DNA of 64,000 nt, from the NCBI GenBank assembly GCA_964426875.1, contig CAYRSB010000002.1:56155-120154 (forward strand), in the 5' to 3' direction. A program made the position numbers and the translations under genes. This DNA comes from an uncultured Atribacterota bacterium (GTDB taxonomy: Bacteria > Atribacterota > Atribacteria > Atribacterales > Caldatribacteriaceae). Below are positions 2,529-63,265 of the stretch, piece by piece. Numbering within the stretch: the stretch's first letter is position 1; each line of letters starts with the position of its first letter. The notes beneath the pieces are model-generated. The model was given only the letters and a program-made list of their open reading frames with translations, made no database searches and was not told where the DNA came from.

Positions 2529-3514
2529 TAATGCAGAACGTGCTCTTAGACATTCAGGACCTTGTGGTGCACTTTCGGGTGTATGGAGGATATCTTAAGG
2601 TTCTTGATGGAGTACAGCTTCGGGTTCATCAACAGGAAAAAGTGGGCTTAGTCGGTGAAACGGGTTGTGGTAAGACGACCACCATGAAGACCATCATGGG
2701 CATTCTCCCTCAGCCCCCTGGGGTTATCAAAGGAGGAAAGATACTCTTTCGGGGGAAAGATGTTCTTTCCATGAAACCTTACGAGCTTGAAGATTTGCGC
2801 CGTCGTAGTATTTCTATGATCTTTCAAGACCCTACGGCGGCTCTCAACCCCGTCTTCACTGTGGGAGAGCAACTTAAAGATGCTGTTCGATATGCCCTGG
2901 GGAAAAGAGATCACGGTTCTCTTGAAGAAGTAGCCCTTTCGGCTCTTCATGCTGTAGCGCTTCCAGATCCTCTCCGCATTCTTGAGAGTTACCCCATACA
3001 GCTTTCGGGAGGCATGCGCCAGCGGGTGTGTATTGCCCTGGCTCTGGCCTGTCCTAAGGAACTTCTCATTGCTGATGAGCCTGGAACCTCTCTTGACGTG
3101 ACTATTCAGGACCAGATTCTGCGCCTCATCCATCGTCTGGCAGAAGAACGCAGAATGGCTGTCATTCTCATTTCCCATTCTCTGGGGGTCATACGAGAGT
3201 GGACGGAGAGAGTGTATGTGATGTACGCTGGGACAATTGTAGAGGAAGCTAAAACCGAAGAGCTCTTTTTCCATCCTCTTCATCCTTATACCAAAGCCTT
3301 GATGGATTGTGTTCCCAAACTCACCGGAGAGGGCATAGCTGAAGGTATCCCTGGAAGGATTCCTGATTACTTTGACCCTCCTTCGGGTTGTCGTTTTCAC
3401 CCCCGCTGTACCTATCGCATGGAGGTCTGTGAGCTGGAAAGGCCCCGACTTTTTGAAGTGGAGAGTGGGCATCGGGTGGCCTGCTTTCTTTTTGGGAGGA
3501 AAAGGGATGAGTGA
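2525..3514 (+). CDS. ABC transporter ATP-binding protein, DppD/OppD type
   Basis: Walker A GETGCGKT, signature LSGGMRQR, Walker [13 protein letters not shown], and a C-terminal oligopeptide-type Cys motif ([11 protein letters not shown]). Confidence 0.92.
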
Positions 3515-4463
3515 ACTCCTTCGTGTTGAGAATTTGCGAAAGTTCTTTGTCACATCCCGGGGAACGGTGAAAGCAGTGCAGGATGTGAGCTTTGTCATTC
3601 ATCCTGGAGAAACCTTTGGGTTAGTGGGAGAATCAGGCTCGGGGAAGAGTACTGTAGCCTACATGGTCATGGGGATGTATCGGCCGAGCGGTGGTCGTAT
3701 TCTTTTTAAGGGAAGAGATATCACCGTGCCTCATTCTCGCCGTCCTCTCTTTCTCAAGAAAGACCTGCAGATTGTCTTTCAGGATCCCGGCTCTTCCTTG
3801 AACCCTCGGCGTTCGGTCCAGGAAATCCTGGAACTTCCGCTTCTCGTACACCATATGGTTGACAAAAGGAGGGTTAAAGAGAAAACGGAGGAGCTCTTGA
3901 GTATGGTGGAACTTCCTCCCGATTACGCCGAAAAATACCCCCGTGCCCTTGGGGGAGGGGAGAAACAGATGGTAGCCATCGCTCGGGCCCTGAGTACCGA
4001 GCCATCCCTTCTTGTCCTTGACGAACCTACCTCGGCACTCGATGTTTCCATCCAGGCCAAAATCATCAATACTCTGGTACGGATCCAGAAAGAGCGTCGC
4101 CTGGGTTATCTTTTCATCACCCACGATCTGAGCCTTATGCGAAACATCGCCCATCGGGTGGCCATCATGTATCTGGGGAGAATCATGGAGCTTGCCCTGT
4201 CTCAAGTTTTCTTTGAACGACCTCTTCACCCTTATACCCAGATGCTTCTTTCTTCCATTCCTGTCGTTTCTGAGGAGGAAGAAAAGCTTAAACCGGGGAA
4301 GATCGTTTCTACTGGGGAAATCCCAAGCCCTGTTAATCTCCCTCCAGGCTGCTCCTTTCATCCTCGCTGTCACAGAGCGCAAGGTGTGTGCCGGGAAAAG
4401 GAGCCAGAGATGGTTGAGGTGGAAAAAGACCACTTTGTGCGTTGTCTTCTCTATGCTGGGTAG
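3507..4463 (+). CDS. ABC transporter ATP-binding protein, DppF/OppF type
   Basis: The ORF track starts at 3372, but ATG 3507 ([14 protein letters not shown]) overlaps the upstream stop (ATGAGTGA) and gives the normal N-terminus. Walker A GESGSGKS; Walker B LLVLDEPTSALD. Confidence 0.9.
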   Translation: MSELLRVENLRKFFVTSRGTVKAVQDVSFVIHPGETFGLVGESGSGKSTVAYMVMGMYRPSGGRILFKGRDITVPHSRRPLFLKKDLQIVFQDPGSSLNPRRSVQEILELPLLVHHMVDKRRVKEKTEELLSMVELPPDYAEKYPRALGGGEKQMVAIARALSTEPSLLVLDEPTSALDVSIQAKIINTLVRIQKERRLGYLFITHDLSLMRNIAHRVAIMYLGRIMELALSQVFFERPLHPYTQMLLSSIPVVSEEEEKLKPGKIVSTGEIPSPVNLPPGCSFHPRCHRAQGVCREKEPEMVEVEKDHFVRCLLYAG

Positions 4464-5041: not shown

Positions 5042-5213
5042 GGGAGATTGTCGGAAAATTTTTCGCAGCTTGCGCAAAAGAGAATCTCCTTTCGAGTACC
5101 GGTACGTGGTGGTTGGCTTTGGGGGGTCTTCCTCCACCTGGTTCATTCCTTGTTGCTCCTTTTTGGAAAGCGGAAGGATTGGGAGAGGTGAGAGTAAGAA
5201 GGTCTCATCGTTG

Positions 5214-5222
5214 TGCTATAAT
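5214..5222 (+). promoter_or_regulatory. extended -10 promoter element (TGcTATAAT)
   Basis: TGCTATAAT lies 23 nt upstream of ATG 5245. Confidence 0.4.
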
Positions 5223-5244
5223 ATTTCTGTGAACACCTGTAACT

Positions 5245-5544
5245 ATGATGCCCAGAAAGCGGCCAACCGTTAGGGATATCGCTTTGATTTCCGGGTCTTT
5301 CCTTGGTACGGGGAATAGAGTAATCAATGGGAGAGCAAAGATTCGTTCTCAAGCCTGGGAGAAGATCCTGGCTATCGCGAAAAACGTGGGATATAAACCC
5401 AATCGAGTGGCCGGCGTCCTAACTCGAAAAGCCCCCGTTTTTGCCGTTGTTTTTCCCGGGAACCCCACTGCTTCCGAAAGATGTTCAAAGAGGAAAACCA
5501 GCGCGACAGCCCAACTTAGAGATTTATGGGATTGTCTTCGGTGA
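5245..5544 (+). pseudogene. LacI-family regulator remnant (HTH domain only)
   Basis: RPTVRDIALISG..LGTGNRVINGR...KILAIAKNVGYKPNRVAG matches a LacI HTH. The reading frame degenerates about 15 aa into the sugar-binding core, and only about 60 nt remain before the next gene. Confidence 0.65.
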
Positions 5545-5617
5545 AGGAAGTGAAAGGCTTTGGAAGAGGGGAATAGTATGAAGCAAACGCAAAGAACCAT
5601 TTAAGGAGGTGGAGGGA

Positions 5618-7515
5618 ATGAAGGGGAAAGTTGTAGTTTTGACGGTTTTGGGGTGTGTATTCCTTTGGATAGCTTCTGCCCTGGCTCAACTTCCTGCAGG
5701 AATACCTCGTGAAGAGACTCTCATATGTGCACAACTTACCGGACGGGTGGGTACTCCTACAAACTTTAACGAATGGGCGGGATGGCGATGGCAAGATCGA
5801 GGAACCCAGCAACTAGTTCATGAGCCTCTCTGGACGGTCGATTATGCCACTGGTCAAATTATTCCTGGCTTAGCTGCAAAGCTTCCTCAATATAATGAGG
5901 ATTTTACTCAAATGACGATCTTTTTGCGTCAAGGGATAGTGTGGAATGATGGAGTACCTTTTACTGCCGATGACGTAGTCTATACCATTGGCCTCCATAT
6001 GCGTGTTCCCGAACTTCTGTATCATGGACCGATTTCAGAATTCGTGGAAGAGGTAGAGAAGGTCGACGATTATACCGTGGTGGTGCATCTTAAAAAACCT
6101 AACTCTCGTTTTCACACTAATTTTCTGGACCGTTGGGGATGTTTGCGCATCTGCCCAAACATGTCTTTGAAAAGGTGGGAGATCCGATAACTTTTGAGTT
6201 CAATCCTCCTGTGGGTTGTGGACCGTATGTCCTTTCGGATTACGATCCAGCTGGTTTCTGGACATTGTGGGAACGAAGGGAAGAGTGGGATAAAACTCCC
6301 ACGGGGATACTCTACGGTAGGCCCCAACCGAGGTATGTGCTATTTCGAGCTTTTGAATCGGAAGAGGCTAAGGTTTTGGCGCAGCTTCGCCATGAATTGG
6401 ATGCTACTGACTATACCTTGGAAGCGTTACGGGCGGTGCTGGATAAAGGGGAAACAGTTCGGGCCTGGAAAAGGGAATGGCCCTGGGTAGAGTATCTCCA
6501 TCCTTGCATTACTGGAATAGTTTTCAACAACGCTGTTGCTCCTTATAATCTCAAGGAAGTTCGCTGGGCTTTGCTTTTAGCCATCGATATTGCCGAGTAC
6601 ATGTCTGTGGCCAACGATCTTATCGGTGCAGTAAGTCCTATTCACCTTCCCTGGGTACGTGCATATATGGAACCGCTTTTTAAGCCTATGGAGGAATGGC
6701 TGACTGATCTCACCATCGACTTAGGTAACGGCGAAACGTTCAAACCTTATGATGCAGAAGTTCCCCTAAAGCTTGCTCAGGCAGCGAAACAGAGGGGATA
6801 TCCGGTACCGGAGGATCCCCAGGTTATTCGAGAGATATTTGGCATGGGTTGGTGGAAACACGCACCCGAAGCAGCAGAGAAACTCCTTATGGAAAATGGT
6901 TTCCGGCGAGATGCCAGTGGGAAATGGCTCCTTCCCGATGGTTCTCCTTGGAAGATCAACGTTACTGCTGCTGTGAATCCCTCTCATCCTCCTTACAGAA
7001 ACGCCGTGGCTGTAGCGGAACAATGGAGGAAATTCGGTATCGATGTCGTTGTAACCCCTACTGAAGCGTTTGAGAGTATGGTCATGTTGGGGCAGTTTGA
7101 AGTGTGTACAACCTGGCCCTCCCGAGAGCCCTGGGGTGTGGGGATGGATCTTTACCGAACCTTTATGTTGTGGCATTCTAAATTGTTTGCTCCTATAGGT
7201 CAGTCTGTGACGGCTGCGCCTGGTGCCTCTGCACGATGGTATGATCTCCGCCTGGACAAGCTCATAGAGCAAATGGAGCAGGTCAATCCGTTTGCCGAAG
7301 AAACCCTTCGTCTTCTCAACATTGAAGCCTTAAAGATTGTAGTTGAAGAAATGCCCACTATTCCCACTTTTACTTATCCATCGGCGTTGGCGTGGGATGA
7401 ATACTATTGGACCAACTGGCCAGGAGCAGAAAACCCCTATTCGCAACCCTTTCATCATTGGCCTAACTTTAAGTACATGTTACCCTTCTTGAAATCGGCA
7501 AAATTGTTGTGTTAG
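5618..7515 (+). pseudogene. ABC substrate-binding protein, family 5, interrupted by a frameshift at 6121-6136
   Basis: ORFs 5609-6190 (frame 2) and 6133-7515 (frame 1) are the N- and C-terminal parts of one SBP (signal peptide MKGKVVVLTVLGCVFLWIASALA; ...HTNFLDR | LGMFAHLPKHVFEKVGDP...PVGCGPY). Frame 1 is closed by stops up to 6120, so the shift lies within TTTTCTGGACCGTTGG. Confidence 0.8.
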
Positions 7516-7724
7516 TGTAAGTTTGTAGTAGGGATTTTGAATGGTATTCTGAGAGGGGGTGGTTGATGCTGCTTTTTTCAGGATCCGTATCGTCGGGAGT
7601 TTGGGGCGAAAGCGGTACTTTTTCGATTCCTGGTAGAAGGAGTGGTTCTTCCTTCCCATTTTTACTCCGGACCGGTGATGGTAGTGTGGAGTAGAATGAA
7701 ATTTTACTATTCGGAGGAGAGAAG

Positions 7725-9062
7725 ATGAAGAGGTGGGTTTTCGCTGGGTCTTTGATTGCGTTGCTTGTGCTCGGTCTTTCCGTGACCTTTGCCGTGGATT
7801 TGACCGTGTGGTCCTCTCCGGACAACGCTGATGCTTTGTATGAACTCGCCCAGAACTTCATGCAGAAGAATCCAGATGTGAAAATTGAAATCACTCCCCT
7901 TTCTTGGGAGGTACTCTACCCGAGGATTCTCCAGGATCTCACCAGTGGTGCAGGGTCTTTTGACGTGACTACCTGGGATCTCATGACTGCTGGAGCCATT
8001 GCCCCCGGAATGCTCGACCTTGAGGCTTTTGCCAAGGAACATCCTGAGCTTGTGGATCCCAACTTTGATGACGAGGACTTTATCCCTACGGCAAAGTACG
8101 TCTACGGATACTGGAAGGATAAGCGCATAGGGTATCCCTTCTATGGAGCAGCGATGTTCTTCTTCTATCGCAAGGATCTCTTCAATAACCCTGCACTTCA
8201 GGAGAAGTTTAAAGCCCAGTATGGAAGGGATCTCGGGGTACCGAAGACTTGGCAAGAAGCTAAGGAGGTAGCTAAATTCTTCACCAAGAAATCCCATCCC
8301 GATTCTCCTACTGAATACGGCATCGCCCTCATGTTCCCCCGTACCCATACCCTCTTTTACATGTATCTCAACTTTTTCGGACCCTATCGGAGGAGTTCAG
8401 AAGGAATCGCCAAGTTTGGAAAGGTTGACCTTGACTGGGGTGATTACTTTACGGCTCAGGGGGAACCGGCCTTCAACTCTGAAGAAGGTGTGAAAGCGCT
8501 GCAGGATATGATCGATCTCATGCAGTACGCTCCAGACCCCTTGGGCTCAGACTATGGAGAAACGCTTGAAGCTTTTGGGAAGGGTATGGTAGCTATGGTA
8601 CCCCAGTGGACGGCTTGTCTGGCAAGCTGGAAGGAATCTCCCAACCTTCAACCCTTCGAGGAAAAAGTGGGTGTAGCAGTCATGCCTGGCGGGACGCCGG
8701 TGAGTGGAGGATGGGGCCTGGGTATCAATGCTGCCTCCAAGAACAAAGAAGCAGCTTTCCGTTTTATCCAGTATGCTACGAGCAAAGAGGGTGACAAAAT
8801 CCAATGGCTCAAATACCGGATCGGGCCGACCCGAAAATCTGTCGTTGAAGACCCTGAGGTTATTAGTGATTCTCCATGGCTCAAAGAGGCCTATGTTCCC
8901 TCCCTTGATGGTGCGTCGCATCGGCCTCGCATTCCCGAGGAACCTCGCCTTGAAGATATTCTGGTGGGGACCCTCTCTGAGGTTCTCTTAGGCCAGCAGC
9001 CAAATACCTTGGAAACCCTTGAGACGGTGGCCAAGGAGTGGAGAAAGGTCCTGGGGAAGTAA
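7725..9062 (+). CDS. sugar ABC transporter substrate-binding protein (family 1, CUT1 type)
   Basis: 445 aa with a signal peptide, an SBP family-1-like sequence and a GGAGGAG RBS. Confidence 0.85.
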   Translation: MKRWVFAGSLIALLVLGLSVTFAVDLTVWSSPDNADALYELAQNFMQKNPDVKIEITPLSWEVLYPRILQDLTSGAGSFDVTTWDLMTAGAIAPGMLDLEAFAKEHPELVDPNFDDEDFIPTAKYVYGYWKDKRIGYPFYGAAMFFFYRKDLFNNPALQEKFKAQYGRDLGVPKTWQEAKEVAKFFTKKSHPDSPTEYGIALMFPRTHTLFYMYLNFFGPYRRSSEGIAKFGKVDLDWGDYFTAQGEPAFNSEEGVKALQDMIDLMQYAPDPLGSDYGETLEAFGKGMVAMVPQWTACLASWKESPNLQPFEEKVGVAVMPGGTPVSGGWGLGINAASKNKEAAFRFIQYATSKEGDKIQWLKYRIGPTRKSVVEDPEVISDSPWLKEAYVPSLDGASHRPRIPEEPRLEDILVGTLSEVLLGQQPNTLETLETVAKEWRKVLGK

Positions 9063-43302: not shown

Positions 43303-43516
43303 GTTCTCACGCTCCGGTGCAAAGGCTTCTTTGTATTATACCAGGCCTGTCAAGGACACGTTCTTGGGCGACAGGCTGTGCAGCCGGCAGTGCCCGGTTG
43401 TGTACGGTGCCGGAGCTTGCAGTGGTTTTTCTCAAAGGTTTCTTGCCTGGAGATTTTGACTTTTGAGGGAATTCTTTCTAAAATTCAGGCAGAAGGTAAC
43501 CTTGGGAGAAGAGAGA

Positions 43517-46240
43517 ATGTCGTTGCGGTGGCGGGTAACTTATATTGTATGGAGTATCCTATTCATTCTTTTTGTCATCTTCTTTGTGACCCGTCGTTTT
43601 CTTACCCAGGATTTTCTTTCTCTTGAAGAGCTCGATATTTCAAAAAGCGCCGAGAGAGTTTTGGCTCTGGTGGAGAGTGAGAAGCAAACCCTTGAGCGTA
43701 GCCTCATTGACTGGTCTTTCTGGGAAGATACGTACCAGTTTGTGGGAGGAATGTATCCAGAGTACGTCAAGGTAAACTGTACTGATGACGTCTTTCTCAA
43801 CCTTCGTCTTCATTTTATGGGCTTTTTCCGGGAGGATGGAACGCTCTTTTTTGGAAGAAGGGAAGAGGGGAGTCTCCCTTTACCCTCTTTCCCACCGGAG
43901 ATTTTTGACCTTCTTAAGCCGCAGGACTTGCAAGATGTGAAGAGTGGCTTTTTCAAAACTTCTGAAGGGATCTTTATGGTGGCCTTTTCCCGTATTCTCA
44001 GAAGCAATCTTTCCGGTCCACCCCGGGGGTTTCTTCTCTTCGGTCGCCTTGTCGATGAGGAATTCATCGGGCGTTTGGAGGAACTCTCCGGTTTCTCTTT
44101 TCGCTTTGGAGAAGTGAGTGGGGTTCCCGAAAAGACTGTGCGGGTCGAAGAATTGTCCCCCAGGGAGAAAGGCGTTACCCTCTTTTTCCCTTATCTTCAG
44201 GGAAATGGGGCGTTGCAACTTTCTTTTCCCTATGAACGAGTAGTTTTCCTTAAGGCTCAAGAATCACTGAGAGCCCTCTCTCTTCATCTCTTTGGGGGGA
44301 GTGCCTTGCTGTTTCTCTTCCTTTTCCTCTTTATGGGGAGGACAGTTGTGCGGAGGATTCTTGCAGTGGCCTCTTTTCTCGAGGATGTTCGCATAAGGAG
44401 AGATTTTACTCCTCGTCTTTCCCCTTCAGGGGGGGACGAGCTACAGATTTTGCAGGAAGCGGTAAACGACCTTCTGGCAAGTATTGAAAAAGCCCAGGAG
44501 GACCTCAGGGCAAGTGAAACCCGGTTTCGGGAACTCTTTGAAAGAGTCCCGGTGGGAGTTTATCGGGCGCGCTTTGGAGGGGAAATACTCCTGGCTAATT
44601 CCCGAATGGTTGAGCTTTTCGGCTGTAGTAATCTTACAGAACTCAGAGAACAGGGCCTTGGATTCTTCAGAAGGGATGCTCTTTTCACCTTAGAGTATTT
44701 TGAACGTCTTTTAAGAGAGCAAGGCGAAATTCGAGGTCTTGTAAGCACCTGGGCACGGAGTGATGGTGTGCCTCTTTTCCTTCGGGAAAGCGCTCGCCTG
44801 GTGGGAGGAGAGTTTTATGAGGGAACCCTGGAGGATGTAACCGGTGAGGTTCTGGCCCGAGAGGATCTCAAAAAGAGTGAAATGTACTATCGGATTCTTC
44901 TGGAATACAGTTCCGATGGAGTAGTAGTTCTTGACCGGGAAGGACGAGTACGTTTTGCAACCTCTTCGATGGAGAACGTTACCGGTTTCAGGCCTGAGGA
45001 ACTTCAAGGAACCCTGGCTTTCACCTTTGTGCATTCTCAGGACGTGCGCTTGGTAAAAAGGGCCTTTTTAAGGGGCAAGGAGGGAGTAGTTAAGCGGGTA
45101 GAGTTTCGTCTCCGTCATCGTGATGGGAATTTCCAGGTGGTGGAGGCAGTAGGCAGAATACTCTTGGAACACCCTCTCGTCCAGGGGGTAGTGGTAACCG
45201 TTCGGGATATCACCGAAAGAAAAAAGATCGAAGAGGCCATTCGTTATGCCAGTTTCCGGGATGCCCTGACCGGGCTTTATAACCGGGCGTATTTTGAAGA
45301 GGAACTTACTCGTTTGAGCGGTACTCGCTTTTTGCCCTTGAGTGTTATCATTGGGGATCTCAACGGACTTAAAATCACCAATGATGTCTTTGGTCATGGA
45401 GAAGGAGACAAGGTCCTGAAGCTTGTAGCCAAGGTTTTCCGGGAAGTTTGCCGGCAAAGCGATGTTGTAGCTCGCTGGGGAGGAGACGAATTTGCCGTCA
45501 TCCTACCCAGAGCCGATGCACAGGTTGTTGTGAATGTCTGTGAGAGGGTGCAGAAGAGGCTCGGAGAGGAGGGGTTTCCACTCCCGGTGAGCATCGCCTT
45601 AGGCTGGGCCACCAGAGAATCCTCCCCTGTGGATCCCGAGGGTTTGGTTCGAGAGGCAGAAGAAAGGATGTATCGGGTGAAGCTTTCTGAAAGAGAGACC
45701 ATGTACCAGAGTATTCTGAAGACTCTTGAAAAGATCCTCAAGGAAGTTCAAGGAGAGGTATACCTTGTAAAGATGGAGCGTTTGGCCTCTTCCTTTGGAA
45801 GGAAGTTGCATCTTTCGCAGGAAGAAGAGGACCACCTCGTGCTTTTGGCTCGCTTTGTCGATGTGGGAGTGGTGGCTCTGGCTCAGAGAGGTTGGGGGTC
45901 GAATCTTGAGGGTGAAACCTTCATTCGCCAGCATACCGAGTCTGGGTACTTTATCGCCAGCAACATCCCTCTCCTTTCCCCTCTGGCAGAGGCGATTCTC
46001 TCCCATCACGAGCGGTGGGATGGCAGAGGGCTTCCCCGAGGGCTAAAAGGAGAAGAAATTCCTTTTCTCTCCAGGGTTGTGGCATTGTGTGAAGCTTTTC
46101 TTTTAAGACCTTATGAGGAGGCTTTGAGTTTTATTCAGAGCCAGAGTGGCTATATTTTTGATCCCTTCCTGGCCCTGGAATTCATCAATTTTGCCAAGAG
46201 TGACTTTGTCGAAAATGGTGCTGAGTGGATGAATCGATGA
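43517..46240 (+). CDS. membrane sensor: CHASE4-like, PAS x2, GGDEF (intact, with RxxD I-site) and a degenerate HD-GYP domain
   Basis: ATG 43517 (MSLRWRVTYIVWSILFILFV). WSFWEDTYQF is CHASE4-like. RQSDVVARWGGDEF holds the I-site and active site. SHHERWDGRGLPRGL marks HD-GYP, but the H and HD metal ligands are replaced (MERLA.., RFVDVG). Confidence 0.85.
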   Translation: MSLRWRVTYIVWSILFILFVIFFVTRRFLTQDFLSLEELDISKSAERVLALVESEKQTLERSLIDWSFWEDTYQFVGGMYPEYVKVNCTDDVFLNLRLHFMGFFREDGTLFFGRREEGSLPLPSFPPEIFDLLKPQDLQDVKSGFFKTSEGIFMVAFSRILRSNLSGPPRGFLLFGRLVDEEFIGRLEELSGFSFRFGEVSGVPEKTVRVEELSPREKGVTLFFPYLQGNGALQLSFPYERVVFLKAQESLRALSLHLFGGSALLFLFLFLFMGRTVVRRILAVASFLEDVRIRRDFTPRLSPSGGDELQILQEAVNDLLASIEKAQEDLRASETRFRELFERVPVGVYRARFGGEILLANSRMVELFGCSNLTELREQGLGFFRRDALFTLEYFERLLREQGEIRGLVSTWARSDGVPLFLRESARLVGGEFYEGTLEDVTGEVLAREDLKKSEMYYRILLEYSSDGVVVLDREGRVRFATSSMENVTGFRPEELQGTLAFTFVHSQDVRLVKRAFLRGKEGVVKRVEFRLRHRDGNFQVVEAVGRILLEHPLVQGVVVTVRDITERKKIEEAIRYASFRDALTGLYNRAYFEEELTRLSGTRFLPLSVIIGDLNGLKITNDVFGHGEGDKVLKLVAKVFREVCRQSDVVARWGGDEFAVILPRADAQVVVNVCERVQKRLGEEGFPLPVSIALGWATRESSPVDPEGLVREAEERMYRVKLSERETMYQSILKTLEKILKEVQGEVYLVKMERLASSFGRKLHLSQEEEDHLVLLARFVDVGVVALAQRGWGSNLEGETFIRQHTESGYFIASNIPLLSPLAEAILSHHERWDGRGLPRGLKGEEIPFLSRVVALCEAFLLRPYEEALSFIQSQSGYIFDPFLALEFINFAKSDFVENGAEWMNR

Positions 46241-49282: not shown

Positions 49283-49309
49283 ATCCTGCGCCTTCAGGAT
49301 CAATTTTTT
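49283..49309 (+). terminator. weak intrinsic terminator after the lipBA-methyltransferase unit
   Basis: ATCCTG cgcctt CAGGAT followed by CAATTTTTT. Confidence 0.45.
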
Positions 49310-49366
49310 GTCTCTCCACTTTTCCCTCTAAAGTTTTCCTGTTTCTCTCCGATATAATAAAGCGGG

Positions 49367-49461
49367 AGGGAATGAAAGGGCAAACTCTCCGAAAGGGGAG
49401 GGCGCAAAGCCACGGACCTACAGCACGAAAAGTGCCACGGTGGCCGGGCTGCCAAGTCCCT
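49367..49461 (+). promoter_or_regulatory. cyclic-di-GMP-I (GEMM-I) riboswitch aptamer
   Basis: AGGGCAAAC-UCUCC GAAA GGGGA-GGGCGCAAAGCC-ACGG... is collinear with the Vc2 aptamer core (AGGGCAAACC-AUUC GAAA GAGU-GGGACGCAAAGCC-UCCGG...). It has a second hairpin GCAC GAAAA GUGC, and P1 is AGGGA/UCCCU. TATAAT lies at 49353-49358 just upstream. Confidence 0.85.
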
Positions 49462-49513
49462 TTTTTGTTGGCCGGCGCCCGCCCTCAAGGGGAGTCCCTG
49501 AGGGGGTGTAAGT

Positions 49514-50152
49514 ATGAGGAGCCGGATTCCGATTTTTGTCTTTCTCTGCAGCGCCCTTCTTGTTTTTGCTTCCGGTTGTGCGACGGATCTCACCACTCCT
49601 AAGAGCGAGGTTTCGGTTTCTTCGGAGCGTTTTGTCGAGAGAAACTTCGACCGTATACTCCTTGATGTTCCCTTTCTTCCTCAGGTTCCTCCAGGGGACT
49701 GGTCGAGAACACGAAACTGCGGCGTGGCTTCTGCAGCTATGATTCGGGCTTACTATTTCGGTACGATGCCGACGAAAGAAGACATCATGCGAGCCAATGA
49801 ATGGCTCAATGCCCGTTTTGGTTCACCCATCAACGGTTATAATGGCGACTATACAAACGTCTTTCAGATCCGGGCCTGGCTCGAAGCAGAGGGTGTTCCC
49901 ACAAGAATCGGCATGGGAAACCTTGGGGTTCTGCGTAGACTCCTTGAAGAAGGTAAGCCCGTTCTTGTTGCTGTTTATTCCGATATGAATCCTCGGGGGG
50001 CCAAACACGCCATGGTTCTTGTGGGCATGGATGGTTCCTCAATCTATGTGCATGACCCGGGGAAGACGAATGGGGCGAATAACTGCTATCCTACCTCTCG
50101 GTTTCTTTCCGTCTGGTCCTTGCAGAATAACTGGTATGTCACCATAGAGTGA
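49514..50152 (+). CDS. peptidase C39-like (papain-fold) lipoprotein
   Basis: Lipobox LVFASGC. LDVPFLPQVPPGDWSRTRNCGVASAAMI (catalytic Cys context) and ...HAMVLVGMDG...VHDP (His). Confidence 0.7.
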   Translation: MRSRIPIFVFLCSALLVFASGCATDLTTPKSEVSVSSERFVERNFDRILLDVPFLPQVPPGDWSRTRNCGVASAAMIRAYYFGTMPTKEDIMRANEWLNARFGSPINGYNGDYTNVFQIRAWLEAEGVPTRIGMGNLGVLRRLLEEGKPVLVAVYSDMNPRGAKHAMVLVGMDGSSIYVHDPGKTNGANNCYPTSRFLSVWSLQNNWYVTIE

Positions 50153-50787
50153 CTAATAGGAAGAATTTCCTATTGCCTTTTTCCCTCAAAGACTGGTATT
50201 TTTTCCTGAGAAAGGGGGGCCAGTCTCTGAGGGTAACATTCGGCTTTTTTGGAATCATGAGTATTCTCGTGGTCTTGGGTATTTCAGGGTGTGGAGGTGT
50301 ACCGCAAGGAGGGTGCTTGGGAGGAGATACTAAAATCACGGGGAAAGTGCTTCTTCCCGAGAGTTGTGGTTCTTGTCCTCTCTTTGTGATCCTCCGTGAC
50401 GAAAATGGTCCCGTATCTACGGTTTTGACCGATACCGAGGGACACTTTTCCTTTTCACAGATTCCCGGTCCTGCAGTACTCCTTTATGTGCGCTGTGGGT
50501 TAATGACTATGGCCAAGGGTGTGTATCCCCTCAATGAAGGAGAAGTCAACGATGTAGGCTGTATCGACGCCTTTTCCACCGCTCAGGTAGTGATCTATGA
50601 GGTAGCCCGTGAGAAGTATCCTGGAACGGTCTTCATCCGTGATATTCCCAATTTCCTTGTTCCGGAGAATTTCGTGTGTCTGGTAGAGGGGGCACTTTCC
50701 CACTGTGAAGACCCCCTTTCTTCTTCCCTGGTGCGTTCCGAGGCTCTTCGATATATAGATGTGTGGTTTGGAAACCCTCCTAAGTAA
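50149..50787 (+). CDS. hypothetical lipoprotein with a carboxypeptidase-regulatory-like (Ig-like) domain
   Basis: VVLGISGCGG lipobox and ITGKVLLPE...TDTEGHFSFSQIPGP. The start is uncertain (GTG 50149 overlapping the upstream stop, or ATG 50257). Confidence 0.55.
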   Translation: MTNRKNFLLPFSLKDWYFFLRKGGQSLRVTFGFFGIMSILVVLGISGCGGVPQGGCLGGDTKITGKVLLPESCGSCPLFVILRDENGPVSTVLTDTEGHFSFSQIPGPAVLLYVRCGLMTMAKGVYPLNEGEVNDVGCIDAFSTAQVVIYEVAREKYPGTVFIRDIPNFLVPENFVCLVEGALSHCEDPLSSSLVRSEALRYIDVWFGNPPK

Positions 50788-61419: not shown

Positions 61420-62087
61420 AAGGAAGATTTTTGCTTCTGGCCATTTTTGTGCTTTTCGTCGGAAATGTCGTTTGGGCTCAGGGTCTCTTTGACGAGGCTT
61501 TGGTAGCTAAGGAGAAGGGCGAGGTGGAAAAGGCCTTAAGCCTTTTTGAAGAGTGTATACGACGAGGTGAACGGATACTCGATGCGTACTGGGAGGCGGG
61601 AAACTTACTCGTTGCGCAAGGAAGATACCGCAAAGCCTTCAGCATGTCCCAGGGGGCCATTCCGGCCTTTGAGGAATACCTCGAGAATCACCCCGAGGAC
61701 CATTTCAATTGGTTCCGTTTGGGTTACGTTTTTGAGTTGCGCAGCGCAAGTGGTGTGATTCGAGAGTGGGACAAAGCGAAGGAGTGTTTCACCAGAGCTT
61801 TAGAGCTTCAGCCAGAAAATTCTCTCTACCTTTTGCATTTGGGATATGTATTGTATAAGATGGGAGAGAGAGAAAAGGCAGTCTTGGTCCTCTCGAGAAT
61901 TTTGGAGAGATATCCCGGAGACCTTGAGACTCGTTACTGGCTTGCGGTAGTGTTTGAGGCACAGAGAGAGTACGAAAGGGCGAGAGAGGAGCTGCGCTTT
62001 ATTCTTGCTCATGCTCCGGAGGGTTTTGGGAGACTTAGGGAAGTTGAGGCGCTTCTGAGGAGAGTGGAAAGGAAGGTGGAGCAGTGA
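61416..62087 (+). CDS. secreted TPR-repeat protein
   Basis: ATG 61416 overlaps the lptF/G stop (ATGA). Signal peptide MKGRFLLLAIFVLFVGNVVWA, followed by TPR repeats. Confidence 0.75.
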   Translation: MKGRFLLLAIFVLFVGNVVWAQGLFDEALVAKEKGEVEKALSLFEECIRRGERILDAYWEAGNLLVAQGRYRKAFSMSQGAIPAFEEYLENHPEDHFNWFRLGYVFELRSASGVIREWDKAKECFTRALELQPENSLYLLHLGYVLYKMGEREKAVLVLSRILERYPGDLETRYWLAVVFEAQREYERAREELRFILAHAPEGFGRLREVEALLRRVERKVEQ

Positions 62088-63265
62088 AGCGAGCGCTTTT
62101 CTTTCTTTTTGGAGTTTTTGTAGCCCTGGGACTTTACGGATGCTTCCGAGTTGGAGGACAGGGTAGTGTAATCGGAGAGGTATGGAGCAGTACCGGACCC
62201 ATAGAGGGAGTACTTGTGGAGGGAGGAGGAAAGAGTACCCTTACCGATGCAAATGGGCGATTCCTTCTTGAAGGCGTTCCAAGTGGCAACTGTTACATTT
62301 TCTTTTCTCACCCTTCCTACACCGGTGCCGTGCTGAAGGTAGAGGTTGTCGATGGGGAAACAAGAAGCGTCAACGCCGAGGGAAGGGTTGTCCTTAAGGA
62401 GCGCAGCGATGAGAATTTCAAGGAGTATCTCTTTACCCTTTACGAGCTCGGTTTTTATGAACGAGTACTTGAGGGCGCAAAGGATTTTCTCTCTGCCTAT
62501 CCGACGAGCCCCCTTGCTGCCGGCGTAACCTTTCTTGGGGGAGCTTCGCTCTTTTACCTTGGTCGATATCGGGAAGCGATTGAATCTCTGGGAATGGTTG
62601 TGGGACAGTTTCCCGAGGACCCCTTTGCCGACGATGCCCAGTATCTTTTGGCTAAGTGCTTTGGCGAGGGGCTACGGGATTACAGTCGGGCAATTATAGA
62701 GTATCGGAGACTTGTTGAGACGTATCCGGATAGCGAGCTCGTGGGAAGTGCCTGGTATGAGATGGGGGATTGCCTGTATATCCTTGGCTCTTTTCCAGAT
62801 GCCTTCTTTGCTTACGAAAATGCCGTGAATTCTGGGGGGGAGGTGGCACCAAGGGCCCTCTATTCTGCAGCCCACTGCCTCTACCGCATGGAGTTTTACC
62901 ACCGGGCGGCGGCAAAGTTTTTGGAGTACGTAGCCCTGTATCCGGCAACCGATCTCTCCGACGATGCCCAGTATTTTGCCGGAGCATCGCTGTACAAGGC
63001 AGGGCGGTTTGCCGAAGCCTTACAAGCCTTTGATGACTGTGTGAGGCTCTACCCTCAAGGGACTTGGTACAACGGTATTCTCATCGCTCCGGCAGCTCTC
63101 TTCCACAAGGGACTTTGTCTTGAGAAACTCGGTCGATATTTGGAGGCCTACAACCTCTATCTTGAGATCATCCGGAAGTACCCCGGGGCGCAATGGGCCG
63201 ATGGATCTTCTCTCATTCAGAATGTCCAGTTCCGGATCGAGTGGCTCAAGAAATACGTCCTGTAG
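62084..63265 (+). CDS. lipoprotein with a carboxypeptidase-regulatory-like domain and YbgF-like TPR repeats
   Basis: Lipobox ALGLYGC. TDANGRFLLEGVPSG, and repeated ..A.Y.LA.C.Y..G.Y..A TPR units. GTG start overlaps the upstream stop. Confidence 0.7.
   Translation: MKRALFFLFGVFVALGLYGCFRVGGQGSVIGEVWSSTGPIEGVLVEGGGKSTLTDANGRFLLEGVPSGNCYIFFSHPSYTGAVLKVEVVDGETRSVNAEGRVVLKERSDENFKEYLFTLYELGFYERVLEGAKDFLSAYPTSPLAAGVTFLGGASLFYLGRYREAIESLGMVVGQFPEDPFADDAQYLLAKCFGEGLRDYSRAIIEYRRLVETYPDSELVGSAWYEMGDCLYILGSFPDAFFAYENAVNSGGEVAPRALYSAAHCLYRMEFYHRAAAKFLEYVALYPATDLSDDAQYFAGASLYKAGRFAEALQAFDDCVRLYPQGTWYNGILIAPAALFHKGLCLEKLGRYLEAYNLYLEIIRKYPGAQWADGSSLIQNVQFRIEWLKKYVL

Follow-up and report, generated by a model that had tools for sequence, protein, structure and literature searches.

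A class-I c-di-GMP riboswitch predicted to control a C39-like peptidase lipoprotein in Atribacterota

In Bacillus subtilis, the sigma-D/sigma-28-dependent autolysins LytC, LytD and LytF are exported hydrolases of the motile phase encoded behind flagellar-sigma promoters, and LytF is a papain-like cysteine peptidase of the NlpC/P60 family. Class-I c-di-GMP riboswitches that act as OFF switches are described in Clostridioides difficile, where they precede the flagellar operon (flgB) and the gene for the secreted protease PPEP-1 (zmpI/ppep-1) (PMC11477304). A full-text literature search found no paper mentioning c-di-GMP riboswitches in Atribacterota.

The locus described here lies in a 64 kb window (the whole stretch of DNA analysed) from a thermophilic, flagellated Caldatribacteriaceae bacterium of the phylum Atribacterota. 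Isolates of Caldatribacterium are flagellated, carry complete flagellar gene clusters and have their growth optimum at 60-70 °C (PMC13408713), and every Caldatribacteriaceae genome examined contains flagellar genes (PMC11227167). The reading put forward, to which a probability of about 0.7 is assigned, is that a functional class-I c-di-GMP riboswitch, acting as a translational OFF switch behind a sigma-28-type promoter, controls a lipid-anchored C39-like peptidase. The identity of the aptamer, its covariation, its linkage to the peptidase gene, the alternative pairings, the promoter motif, and the fold and conserved residues of the peptidase were computed. The coordinates of all features are collected in Table 1.

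Table 1. Features of the riboswitch locus and its surroundings (positions in the window)
Feature	Position	Strand	Details
CHASE4-HAMP-PAS-GGDEF-HD(HD_5) sensor protein	43463-46240	+	CHASE4 115, GGDEF 111, HD_5 63 bits
Terminator-like hairpin and T-run	49283-49309	+	ATCCTGCGCCTTCAGGAT then CAATTTTTTG; ends the upstream lipB-lipA-methyltransferase unit
Sigma-28/FliA-type promoter	49329-49355	+	-35 TAAAGTTT (49329-49336), N11, -10 TCCGATAT (49348-49355)
Predicted transcription start	49362-49366	+	7-11 nt after the -10, just 5' of P1; from promoter geometry
c-di-GMP-I (GEMM-I) aptamer including P1	49367-49461	+	Rfam score and covariation
P1	49367-49371 with 49457-49461	+	AGGGA with UCCCU; closing helix
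P2	49385-49400	+	GAAA loop at 49391-94
Segment 1	49385-49405	+	CUCUCCGAAAGGGGAGGGCGC; both P2 strands and junction; can pair with the platform instead
P3	49408-49450	+	
U-rich tract	49461-49469	+	UUUUUUGUU; directly 3' of the P1 strand; possible ligand-dependent attenuator
Segment 2 (switching strand)	49475-49494	+	GCGCCCGCCCU CAA GGGGAG; alternative partners are Segment 1 (anti-aptamer) and the SD region
SD region and start codon	49499-49516	+	UGAGGGGGUG (49499-49508) and ATG (49514-49516); peptidase start
Lipoprotein cysteine peptidase	49514-50152	+	Papain fold, C39-like, 212 aa; PF13529
Two conserved non-coding hairpins	50155-50233	+	Between peptidase gene and ORF2; -38.2 kcal/mol, z -2.8
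First intergenic hairpin	50155-50174	+	Followed by GCCUUUUU; weak terminator-like
Second intergenic hairpin	50183-50233	+	ORF2 SD in the loop, ancestral start codon in the 3' arm
ORF2, small lipoprotein	50227-50787	+	Lipobox ISGC; possible N-terminal beta-sandwich, C-terminal helical part

The aptamer, its promoter and their distribution

The window was searched using cmscan (Rfam 15), which returned a single Rfam match in the 64 kb, to the c-di-GMP-I family (RF01051) at 49369-49456 on the forward strand. It scores 81.1 bits (gathering score 35 bits), and its E value over the whole window is 2.2e-14. The match is full length (model positions 1-87 of 87), and all consensus pairs are standard pairs. 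The aptamer is placed as a cis-regulatory element, in the 5' UTR on the coding strand and ending 57 nt before the start codon. J1/2 is longer here, which shifts P1 outward by ~4 nt relative to the Rfam variant model.

When 19 leaders were compared, 94% of the cells in P1, P2 and P3 were found to be paired, against 36-52% in slid controls, and the covariation score was reached by none of 500 shuffles. Twelve pairs were changed on both sides, and four of the five pairs of P1 carry compensatory changes; P3 covaries as well. The GAAA loop on P2 is invariant in these leaders, and the CCUAC...CACGG of P3 is aligned with the CUAA...AuG tetraloop-receptor columns of the consensus. From the model score, the three-helix architecture with compensatory changes, the GNRA loop with its receptor and the competing platform described below, the element in the window is a class-I c-di-GMP riboswitch, a member of a well-known class, and it is predicted to bind c-di-GMP.

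An aptamer of the RF01051 clan was found 5' of the peptidase orthologue in all 19 Atribacterota genome loci with upstream DNA and before none of 11 distant peptidase homologues, and the same aptamer-peptidase arrangement was present in 14 further metagenome loci. As the upstream context differs between loci, with CRISPR arrays in L002 and L004, the riboswitch and the peptidase gene travel as a module. The original prediction of a GEMM-I riboswitch in the leader of a C39-like peptidase lipoprotein gene is therefore borne out in its central point by the Rfam score, which lies well above the family threshold, by the phylum-wide linkage and by the covariation. The elements that it listed (GGCAAAC, a GAAA-capped hairpin, here P2, GCGCAAAGCC, a second hairpin, here P3, and a closing P1) are all present, and the extent it gave for the aptamer is accurate, given the two P1 strands.

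Compared with the sigma-28 consensus, TAAAGTTT-n11-GCCGATAA (PMC2859248), the promoter matches at 14 of 16 positions with a spacing of exactly N11, and no other site in the window scores 13 of 16 or more on either strand. An equivalent site, also with exact N11 spacing, was found in 18 of the 19 orthologous loci, with scores of 13-15 of 16. On the strength of the consensus match, it is most likely that sigma-28 is used at the peptidase promoter. The TATAAT previously noted ahead of the aptamer is present (49353-49358) but overlaps the 3' end of the sigma-28-type -10 element, of whose promoter it forms part, and has no -35 partner. A sigma-70 promoter was considered and replaced by the sigma-28 reading, as the hexamer 17 nt upstream of the TATAAT does not match TTGACA, and a promoter scan reported no sigma-70-type promoter at 49353 on the forward strand.

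Sigma-28 promoters start transcription about 7-9 nt after the -10 element, and transcription from the sigma-28/FliA-type promoter would start here at ~49362-49366. In all loci of the Caldatribacterium type, 10-13 nt separate the -10 element from the aptamer. A search for RNA-seq runs containing the sequence returned none. The terminator that had been placed at the end of the upstream unit was recovered by the scan as a hairpin followed by a T-run; the hairpin is kept in close relatives, among which L036 shows a compensatory change in the stem.

Expression platform and direction of control

A platform of three segments (Segment 1, Segment 2 and the SD/start region; Table 1) is common to every one of the 19 leaders. 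The 21-nt strand made up of P2 and the junction has a full-length downstream complement in all of them (-23 to -38 kcal/mol), the energy of which was unmatched by any of 200 shuffles in 12 leaders, and the SD/start region is a second partner of this complement (z as low as -5.5). In the window, the duplex of Segment 1 with Segment 2 has an energy of -30.1 kcal/mol, which was matched by 1 of 200 shuffles, and one internal A.G mismatch, while the duplex of Segment 2 with the RBS region has an energy of -26.4 kcal/mol (z -2.5). The segment partners covary, A13 being opposite U in 5 of 5 cases and A18 opposite U in 8 of 8, with positions 3 and 4 swapping together in L002, though the table of partners is biased towards pairing by duplex optimisation.

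Folding with the aptamer enforced left the SD/start region sequestered. In the fold predicted for the window with the aptamer formed, the SD is paired by 49479-49487, and the probability that it is unpaired is 0.23, compared with 0.62-0.67 when the helix between Segments 1 and 2 is enforced. The unconstrained minimum-energy fold of L004, L005 and L013 is the anti-aptamer, in which the RBS is freer. For the window at 60 °C, the energies are -42.6 kcal/mol for the aptamer and -42.9 kcal/mol for the anti-aptamer, and the ensembles are equal at 60-70 °C, with an SD accessibility of 0.23 against 0.65. At 37 °C, the lowest energy predicted for the window leader belongs to a third structure, with GGGAGG:CUCUCC and a long GAAAGGGGA:UCCCUUUUU hairpin stacked on P3, which lies 4-7 kcal/mol below both switch states. 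As the SD is also sequestered in this minimum, thermodynamic prediction alone gives no ON state for the window sequence.

The original prediction left the direction of control open. Because the expression platform is conserved, the most likely direction is repression, that is, a translational OFF switch in which high c-di-GMP would block translation. The nascent RNA would fold into the three-helix aptamer (P1, P2 and P3), and c-di-GMP-bound aptamer would keep the P2/junction strand, so that the switching strand is freed to pair with the SD and block translation. Without c-di-GMP, the switching strand would invade P2 and the junction, forming the anti-aptamer helix and releasing the RBS.

Control at a second level was considered, as in the window the P1 3' strand is followed immediately by U6GUU, which may add ligand-dependent transcription attenuation in this lineage. 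In such a dual-level OFF switch, P1 stabilised by the ligand would terminate transcription together with the U-tract, and transcripts that escape would be repressed translationally via Segment 2. The position of the tract, the covariation behind P1 and the agreement with the logic of the translational platform are all consistent with this arrangement. However, intrinsic terminators do not usually take the form of a 5-bp helix that closes a three-way junction, the tract is interrupted (UUUUAUGUU) in the nearest relatives of the window, and an OFF switch at both levels is considered unlikely.

A transcriptional switch, possibly an ON switch, was judged a poor candidate. It would have the 3' strand of P2, GAAAGGGGA (49391-49399), pair with UCCCUUUUU (49457-49465) when ligand is absent, extending P3 into a terminator hairpin followed by UGUU, and c-di-GMP would remove this hairpin by locking P2 and P1. 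The long hairpin is the one seen when the window leader is folded without constraints to its energy minimum at 37 °C, and 10 of 46 loci with an aptamer, from several lineages, have a comparable U-rich tract directly 3' of P1. However, the ligand-bound P1 (AGGGA:UCCCU) abuts the U-tract too, so that a GC-rich helix would stand before the Us in both states, and at 65 °C a truncated transcript already favours the aptamer-like fold. Most loci lack the tract, which is also broken in the closest relatives as noted above, whereas the universal covarying feature is the Segment 2 switch, with OFF logic.

That the aptamer binds another cyclic dinucleotide, either 3'3'-cGAMP (GEMM-Ib) or the unknown ligand of the RF03167 'GGC' variant, is very improbable, even though cmscan assigned three orthologous aptamers (L007, L009 and L021) to RF03167 rather than RF01051. 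The RF03167 consensus is CGCGAAG, with G after CGC, whereas the distinguishing base is the canonical A in L009 (CGCAAAG), in the window and in all relatives, the sequence being CACAAAG in L007, L008 and L021 and CGCAAAG otherwise. The specificity of the variant was therefore ruled out for L007, L009 and L021, and their assignment looks like an effect of a short P3 tip and clan competition. cGAMP-specific GEMM-Ib RNAs have A at position 20. At the ligand contacts of Vc2, which we take to be G20, A47 and C92, the window has G 49379, A 49406 and C 49452/49453, and these bases are invariant in the 19 leaders.

The peptidase and the downstream gene

The gene placed under the predicted translational OFF switch encodes a product that matches PF13529 (Peptidase_C39_2) with a Pfam HMM score of 50.8 bits against a cut-off of 24. 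It has a lipobox, MRSRIPIFVFLCSALLVFASG-C22, in which G21 and C22 are invariant in 18 orthologues, and of its candidate catalytic residues C69 and H165 are likewise invariant in this set, and D181 nearly so. The best Foldseek match of the AlphaFold2 model (pLDDT 82.7) was the C39-like peptidase 3erv (E 2.8e-8, TM about 0.6), followed by the C39 domains of PCAT1/ComA, PeiR and staphopains. The HMM score and the lipobox agree with the earlier description of a papain-fold C39-like peptidase lipoprotein. On sequence and model, the product is a lipid-anchored, papain-fold C39-like cysteine peptidase with predicted activity. It is a stand-alone lipoprotein of 212 aa, not a canonical bacteriocin-processing C39 peptidase, and the ABC genes that neighbour it specify a sugar importer whose binding protein is of the Peripla_BP_4 family. 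The peptidase family seen here is confined to Atribacterota.

The original prediction included a second lipoprotein gene (ORF2) overlapping the peptidase gene, but the two do not overlap. A GTG at 50149 that overlaps the peptidase stop was rejected as the start, since in relatives the gene begins 72 nt further downstream, at a TTG preceded by an AAGGAGG SD, and indels occur in the sequence between. In the window the TTG of the relatives is CTG (50227), and the next ATG is at 50257. The stretch from 50155 to 50233 is conserved at the DNA level but with 1-nt and 2-nt indels, indicating that it is not coding.

The product of ORF2 has a lipobox (ISGC). The Ig-like/carboxypeptidase-regulatory domain ascribed to it is weakly supported, with a score of 13.9 bits against CarboxypepD_reg (PF13620; cut-off 32.3) and a model of pLDDT 65.7, in which seven strands are followed by three helices. 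The best Foldseek match, to transthyretin/CnaB-type sandwiches, has an E value of 1.6e-3, giving weak support to a beta-sandwich fold.

Four homologues of ORF2 were found, all in close Caldatribacteriaceae relatives, and tblastn detected none beside the peptidase gene in the other Atribacterota genome loci examined. The idea that ORF2 is a conserved partner was therefore rejected. The gene that follows the peptidase gene in L003-L006 and L009 is convergent and encodes a thioredoxin-like lipoprotein. Co-regulation of ORF2 with the peptidase is uncertain, given this distribution and the two conserved hairpins between the genes, and the transcription unit is most likely monocistronic or weakly bicistronic. 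The same promoter and aptamer are also found before a CarboxypepD_reg lipoprotein gene elsewhere in Caldatribacteriaceae, to the product of which ORF2 of the window shows no sequence similarity (E 7.5).

Biological context and comparison with described systems

Binding of the ligand, the direction in which it acts, initiation by sigma-28 and the site where transcription begins are inferred, as is the substrate of the peptidase. With these elements combined, expression of the peptidase would require both an active flagellar sigma factor and low c-di-GMP, the conditions of the motile state. The link to the motile/sessile switch that had been suggested earlier gains unexpected support from the sigma-28-type promoter motif. 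A gene for a CHASE4-HAMP-PAS-GGDEF-HD protein, likely a c-di-GMP synthase/phosphodiesterase, is located 3 kb upstream of the riboswitch, outside its transcription unit.

More tentatively, and with the balance of probability against it, a two-input gate in Atribacterota (a sigma-28-type promoter and low c-di-GMP, the latter read by a translational OFF riboswitch) might drive a small regulon of envelope lipoproteins that remodels the unusual, multilayered envelope or sheds surface adhesins as cells turn motile. The regulon would comprise the C39-like peptidase, joined in Caldatribacteriaceae by at least one CarboxypepD_reg lipoprotein with a riboswitch of its own. If this gate exists, the peptidase family would act as a surface protease of the motility phase, specific to the phylum and governed by a defined on/off signal.

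As a member of a familiar riboswitch class, the element is unsurprising in itself; it is of value for the access it gives to the biology of a phylum that has hardly been cultured. Through it, one gene family, together with a second family of lipoproteins, is marked as a direct target of c-di-GMP with a predicted direction of control, and the promoter would tie the peptidase to the flagellar regulon. As Caldatribacterium isolates are available, these predictions are testable and could suggest what an uncharacterised family of peptidases cleaves.

The aptamer resembles Vc2 and other GEMM-I RNAs in its full-length family match, three-helix junction, GAAA loop on P2 and receptor-like CCUA...GG in P3, in having G, A and C at the three presumed ligand-contact positions, and in its location in a 5' UTR on the coding strand. 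It differs in its host phylum and longer J1/2, and in its platform, where a long anti-aptamer strand complements the whole of the P2 hairpin. The product resembles stand-alone C39-like peptidases (PF13529; 3erv of Bacillus anthracis) in HMM score, best structural match and catalytic residues, whereas the defining context of C39, an N-terminal double-glycine leader peptidase domain of an ABC exporter, is replaced here by a 212-aa lipoprotein.

Like the B. subtilis autolysin genes, the peptidase gene has a flagellar-sigma-type promoter before a sequence for an exported hydrolase, but its product is C39-like rather than NlpC/P60, and it has a riboswitch, which those genes are not known to have. 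The C. difficile flgB and zmpI/ppep-1 switches share with this locus a class-I aptamer, an OFF logic (here deduced from the platform) and control of motile-state genes, and thus offer a precedent for the control proposed here. In C. difficile, one of the controlled genes encodes an exported protease that remodels surface proteins, as the predicted exported peptidase may do here, and a combination of c-di-GMP control with the regulon of the flagellar sigma factor would be common to both. However, the C. difficile switches act by transcription termination and PPEP-1 is a secreted zinc metalloprotease, whereas the conserved mechanism in Atribacterota would be sequestration of the SD and start codon, controlling a lipid-anchored papain-fold cysteine peptidase.

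Identity of the leader and its promoter

The original prediction of a c-di-GMP-I riboswitch 5′ of the peptidase gene, which named an RF01051 score below gathering as grounds for rejection, was borne out when the whole window was compared with Rfam 15. The sole match above gathering was to RF01051 (81.1 bits against a gathering score of 35, E-value 2.2e-14, model positions 1–87 of 87), and it was recovered again when the sub-region was rescanned alone. In the window aptamer, each of the 22 consensus pairs is a standard one. When 19 leaders were aligned and scored on the Rfam structure plus P1, 94% of cells were paired (36–52% in slid-partner controls), both sides had changed in 12 pairs, and the covariation score was reached by none of 500 shuffles. 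P1 itself covaries, being GGAGA/UCUCC in L002 and AGGAA/UUCCU in L007, L008 and L021 (L numbers denote genome or metagenome loci). G 49379, A 49406 and C 49452/3 are invariant in this alignment, and align with G20, A47 and C92 of Vc2, which we take to be its ligand contacts. The position taken as equivalent to position 20 is G 49379, unlike the A that marks cGAMP-specific relatives. The window leader is a genuine c-di-GMP-I riboswitch, a known class.

The 'GGC' variant family RF03167 was assigned to three aptamers (L007, L009 and L021) but was rejected for each, as the defining base in L009 is the canonical A (CGCAAAG versus the variant consensus CGCGAAG) and L007 and L021 likewise carry A at this position. 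We read these assignments as probably arising from clan competition where an aptamer's P3 tip is short. In an unrelated, GC-rich organism, an RF01051 aptamer (L054, coordinates 3386–3530; L060, coordinates 2560–2704) has a P3 insertion of ~60 nt made of repeated GCTCGACAGCT-like units, and is followed by genes for an excisionase-type HTH protein and a response regulator. Another organism (L045) carries two RF01051 aptamers on one strand of a 6.3-kb contig (5170–5254 and 2634–2718), the first of which precedes a small secreted protein.

The predicted TATAAT and upstream terminator-like hairpin with T-run are present. However, the promoter type was corrected, as the promoter scan reported no sigma-70 site on the forward strand at the leader, where a site agreeing with the sigma-28/FliA consensus TAAAGTTT-n11-GCCGATAA (PMC2859248) at 14 of 16 positions was found. 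This was the sole site scoring at least 13 on either strand of the window. Of 19 genome loci, 18 have an equivalent site 5′ of the aptamer with the exact 11-nt spacer (13–15 of 16), and a sigma-28-type site is also present in most metagenome loci. In Caldatribacterium-type loci it ends 10–13 nt before the aptamer, and the transcript would therefore begin just 5′ of P1. These matches suggest that sigma-28 is used at the leader promoter. Isolates of Caldatribacterium are flagellated, carry complete flagellar gene clusters and have their growth optimum at 60–70 °C (PMC13408713), and flagellar genes are present in all examined Caldatribacteriaceae and Thermatribacteraceae genomes (PMC11227167). 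The organism has enzymes of c-di-GMP turnover, as a 925-aa sensor encoded 3 kb upstream of the riboswitch combines diguanylate cyclase and HD-GYP-type phosphodiesterase domains.

Features of the riboswitch region (window positions)
Feature	Position	Strand	Description
CHASE4-HAMP-PAS-PAS-GGDEF-HD(HD_5) protein	43463–46240	+	Sensor gene
Terminator-like hairpin and T-run	49283–49309		Upstream of leader
Sigma-28/FliA-type promoter (candidate)	49329–49355	+	TAAAGTTT-N11-TCCGATAT
TATAAT	49353–49358
P1	49367–49371 with 49457–49461	+	AGGGA with UCCCU; covariation
RF01051 match	49369–49456	+	c-di-GMP-I aptamer
Segment 1	49385–49405		Whole P2 hairpin and junction strand
Segment 2	49475–49494		GCGCCCGCCCU-CAA-GGGGAG; between aptamer and start codon
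Segment 3	49499–49516		SD/start region
Peptidase_C39_2 ORF	49514–50152	+	50.8 bits against a cut-off of 24
Two conserved hairpins	50155–50233		Peptidase–ORF2 spacer

The peptidase gene and ORF2

The gene downstream of the leader encodes a C39-like peptidase, as had been predicted. In an alignment of orthologues, lipobox residues G21 and C22 and residues C69 and H165 are invariant and D181 nearly so. The closest structural match of the model (pLDDT 82.7) was 3erv, a C39-like peptidase of B. anthracis (E-value 2.8e-8), and further top matches were the C39 domains of PCAT1 and ComA, the pseudomurein endoisopeptidase PeiR and staphopains; the assignment has sequence-level support too. The protein is not a C39 domain of the canonical ABC-exporter type.

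In a protein search, homologues were confined to Atribacterota, including Atrimonas thermophila (66% identity), Candidatus Caldatribacterium and Atribacter, and a metagenome-assembly contig that shares the window's gene order encodes an identical peptidase. A linkage scan using one genome per species yielded 20 Atribacterota loci (55–73% identity) and 11 distant homologues (26–30%) from Myxococcota, Acidobacteriota and other phyla. An RF01051-clan aptamer lies immediately 5′ of the gene in all 19 Atribacterota loci with upstream DNA, and none was found 5′ of the gene in the 11 distant loci scanned. As the aptamer is kept in 19 of 19 loci while the flanks vary, aptamer and gene form a conserved module. 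In several Caldatribacterium/Atrimonadaceae genomes, CRISPR arrays (RF01315 repeats) are directly upstream of this module (L002, 497–2401; L004, 3103–3335; L043, 9087–9584).

The predicted overlap of ORF2, the second lipoprotein gene, with the peptidase gene did not hold. The ORF2 start of the closest relatives is a TTG, 72 nt past the peptidase stop codon and preceded by AAGGAGG. This TTG is CTG in the window (50227), with an ATG 10 codons downstream at 50257. The spacer is conserved, yet includes 1-nt and 2-nt indels, and its second hairpin holds the ORF2 Shine-Dalgarno (SD) sequence in the loop and the ancestral TTG in the stem. The conservation expected of ORF2 was also revised, as only four homologues were found, all close relatives, and none beside the peptidase gene in other genomes. 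ORF2 scored 13.9 bits against CarboxypepD_reg, below the cut-off of 32.3; its model (pLDDT 65.7) has three helices after a seven-strand sandwich, with weak Foldseek matches to transthyretin/CnaB-type domains.

Alternative pairings and direction of control

A three-segment design is common to all 19 leaders. A platform complement spanning all of Segment 1 is present in each (−23 to −38 kcal/mol), and in 12 of them none of 200 shuffles was as good; in the window it reaches −30.1 kcal/mol, equalled by one shuffle of 200. The ribosome-binding site (RBS)/start region also pairs with Segment 2 (z down to −5.5 among leaders; window −26.4, z −2.5). Segment 1 varies at few bases, and these change together with their predicted partners: A at positions 13 and 18 faces U in 5/5 and 8/8 sequences, respectively, and positions 3 and 4 are exchanged jointly in L002. 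With the aptamer enforced, the SD/start is sequestered in the minimum-energy fold of every leader; without constraints, L004, L005 and L013 adopt the anti-aptamer as their minimum-energy fold, and the RBS is freer in it. At 60 °C, the aptamer and anti-aptamer states of the window have ensemble energies of −42.6 and −42.9 kcal/mol and SD accessibilities of 0.23 and 0.65, respectively. These conserved alternative pairings point to a translational OFF switch as the only consistent logic, because formation of the ligand-bound aptamer would release Segment 2, which would then mask the RBS and turn translation off.

At 37 °C the window leader has its lowest energy in a third structure, made of GGGAGG:CUCUCC together with GAAAGGGGA:UCCCUUUUU as an extension of P3. 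It leaves the SD masked and is terminator-like in the ligand-free state, and on this fold an ON switch with ligand-free termination in the leader could be built. However, such control is unlikely, as P1 likewise adjoins the U-tract when ligand is bound, only 10 of the 46 aptamer-bearing loci have this tract, which is interrupted in the nearest relatives of the window, and a truncated transcript at 65 °C already favours the aptamer-like fold.

Further targets and precedent

Searching metagenomes with the aptamer core yielded 24 loci, of which the 20 that were re-scanned were all confirmed as RF01051. The peptidase gene is downstream in 14, and in six (L051 and the near-identical L040, L049, L056, L057 and L059) the aptamer and a sigma-28-like promoter precede a gene for a ~350-aa lipoprotein with a clear CarboxypepD_reg domain (67–72 bits), whose homologues are named as Caldatribacteriaceae. 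By its gene context this lipoprotein is a predicted second direct riboswitch target in the family, and the anti-aptamer/anti-SD design of the OFF switch recurs in the L056 leader. The gene after the peptidase in L008, L013, L014 and L017 encodes a lipoprotein rich in beta-sandwich domains. This recurrent association gives some indirect support to the functional pair originally proposed; ORF2 of the window has no detectable relation to these lipoproteins. That of L014, an Atribacteria MAG (coordinates 5100–7874; 924 aa), has SdrD_B, SpaA (prealbumin-like) and CarboxypepD_reg repeats, an architecture typical of surface adhesins. The window also encodes, without a riboswitch, a lipoprotein in which an N-terminal CarboxypepD_reg domain (34.5 bits) precedes TPR/YfiO-like repeats (62084–63265, forward strand).

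Apart from the promoter type and the boundary and conservation of ORF2, the overall interpretation originally offered is supported. A full-text literature search for papers that connect c-di-GMP riboswitches with Atribacter found none. That a phylum-specific lipoprotein peptidase is governed by a sigma-28 promoter together with a predicted OFF switch is a clean, testable hypothesis, for which the newly cultivable Atribacterota provide a setting. The riboswitch class and the theme of c-di-GMP, motility and an exported protease are already established, and the closest functional precedent comes from C. difficile, whose flagellar operon and secreted protease PPEP-1 are both under class-I OFF riboswitches (PMC11477304).
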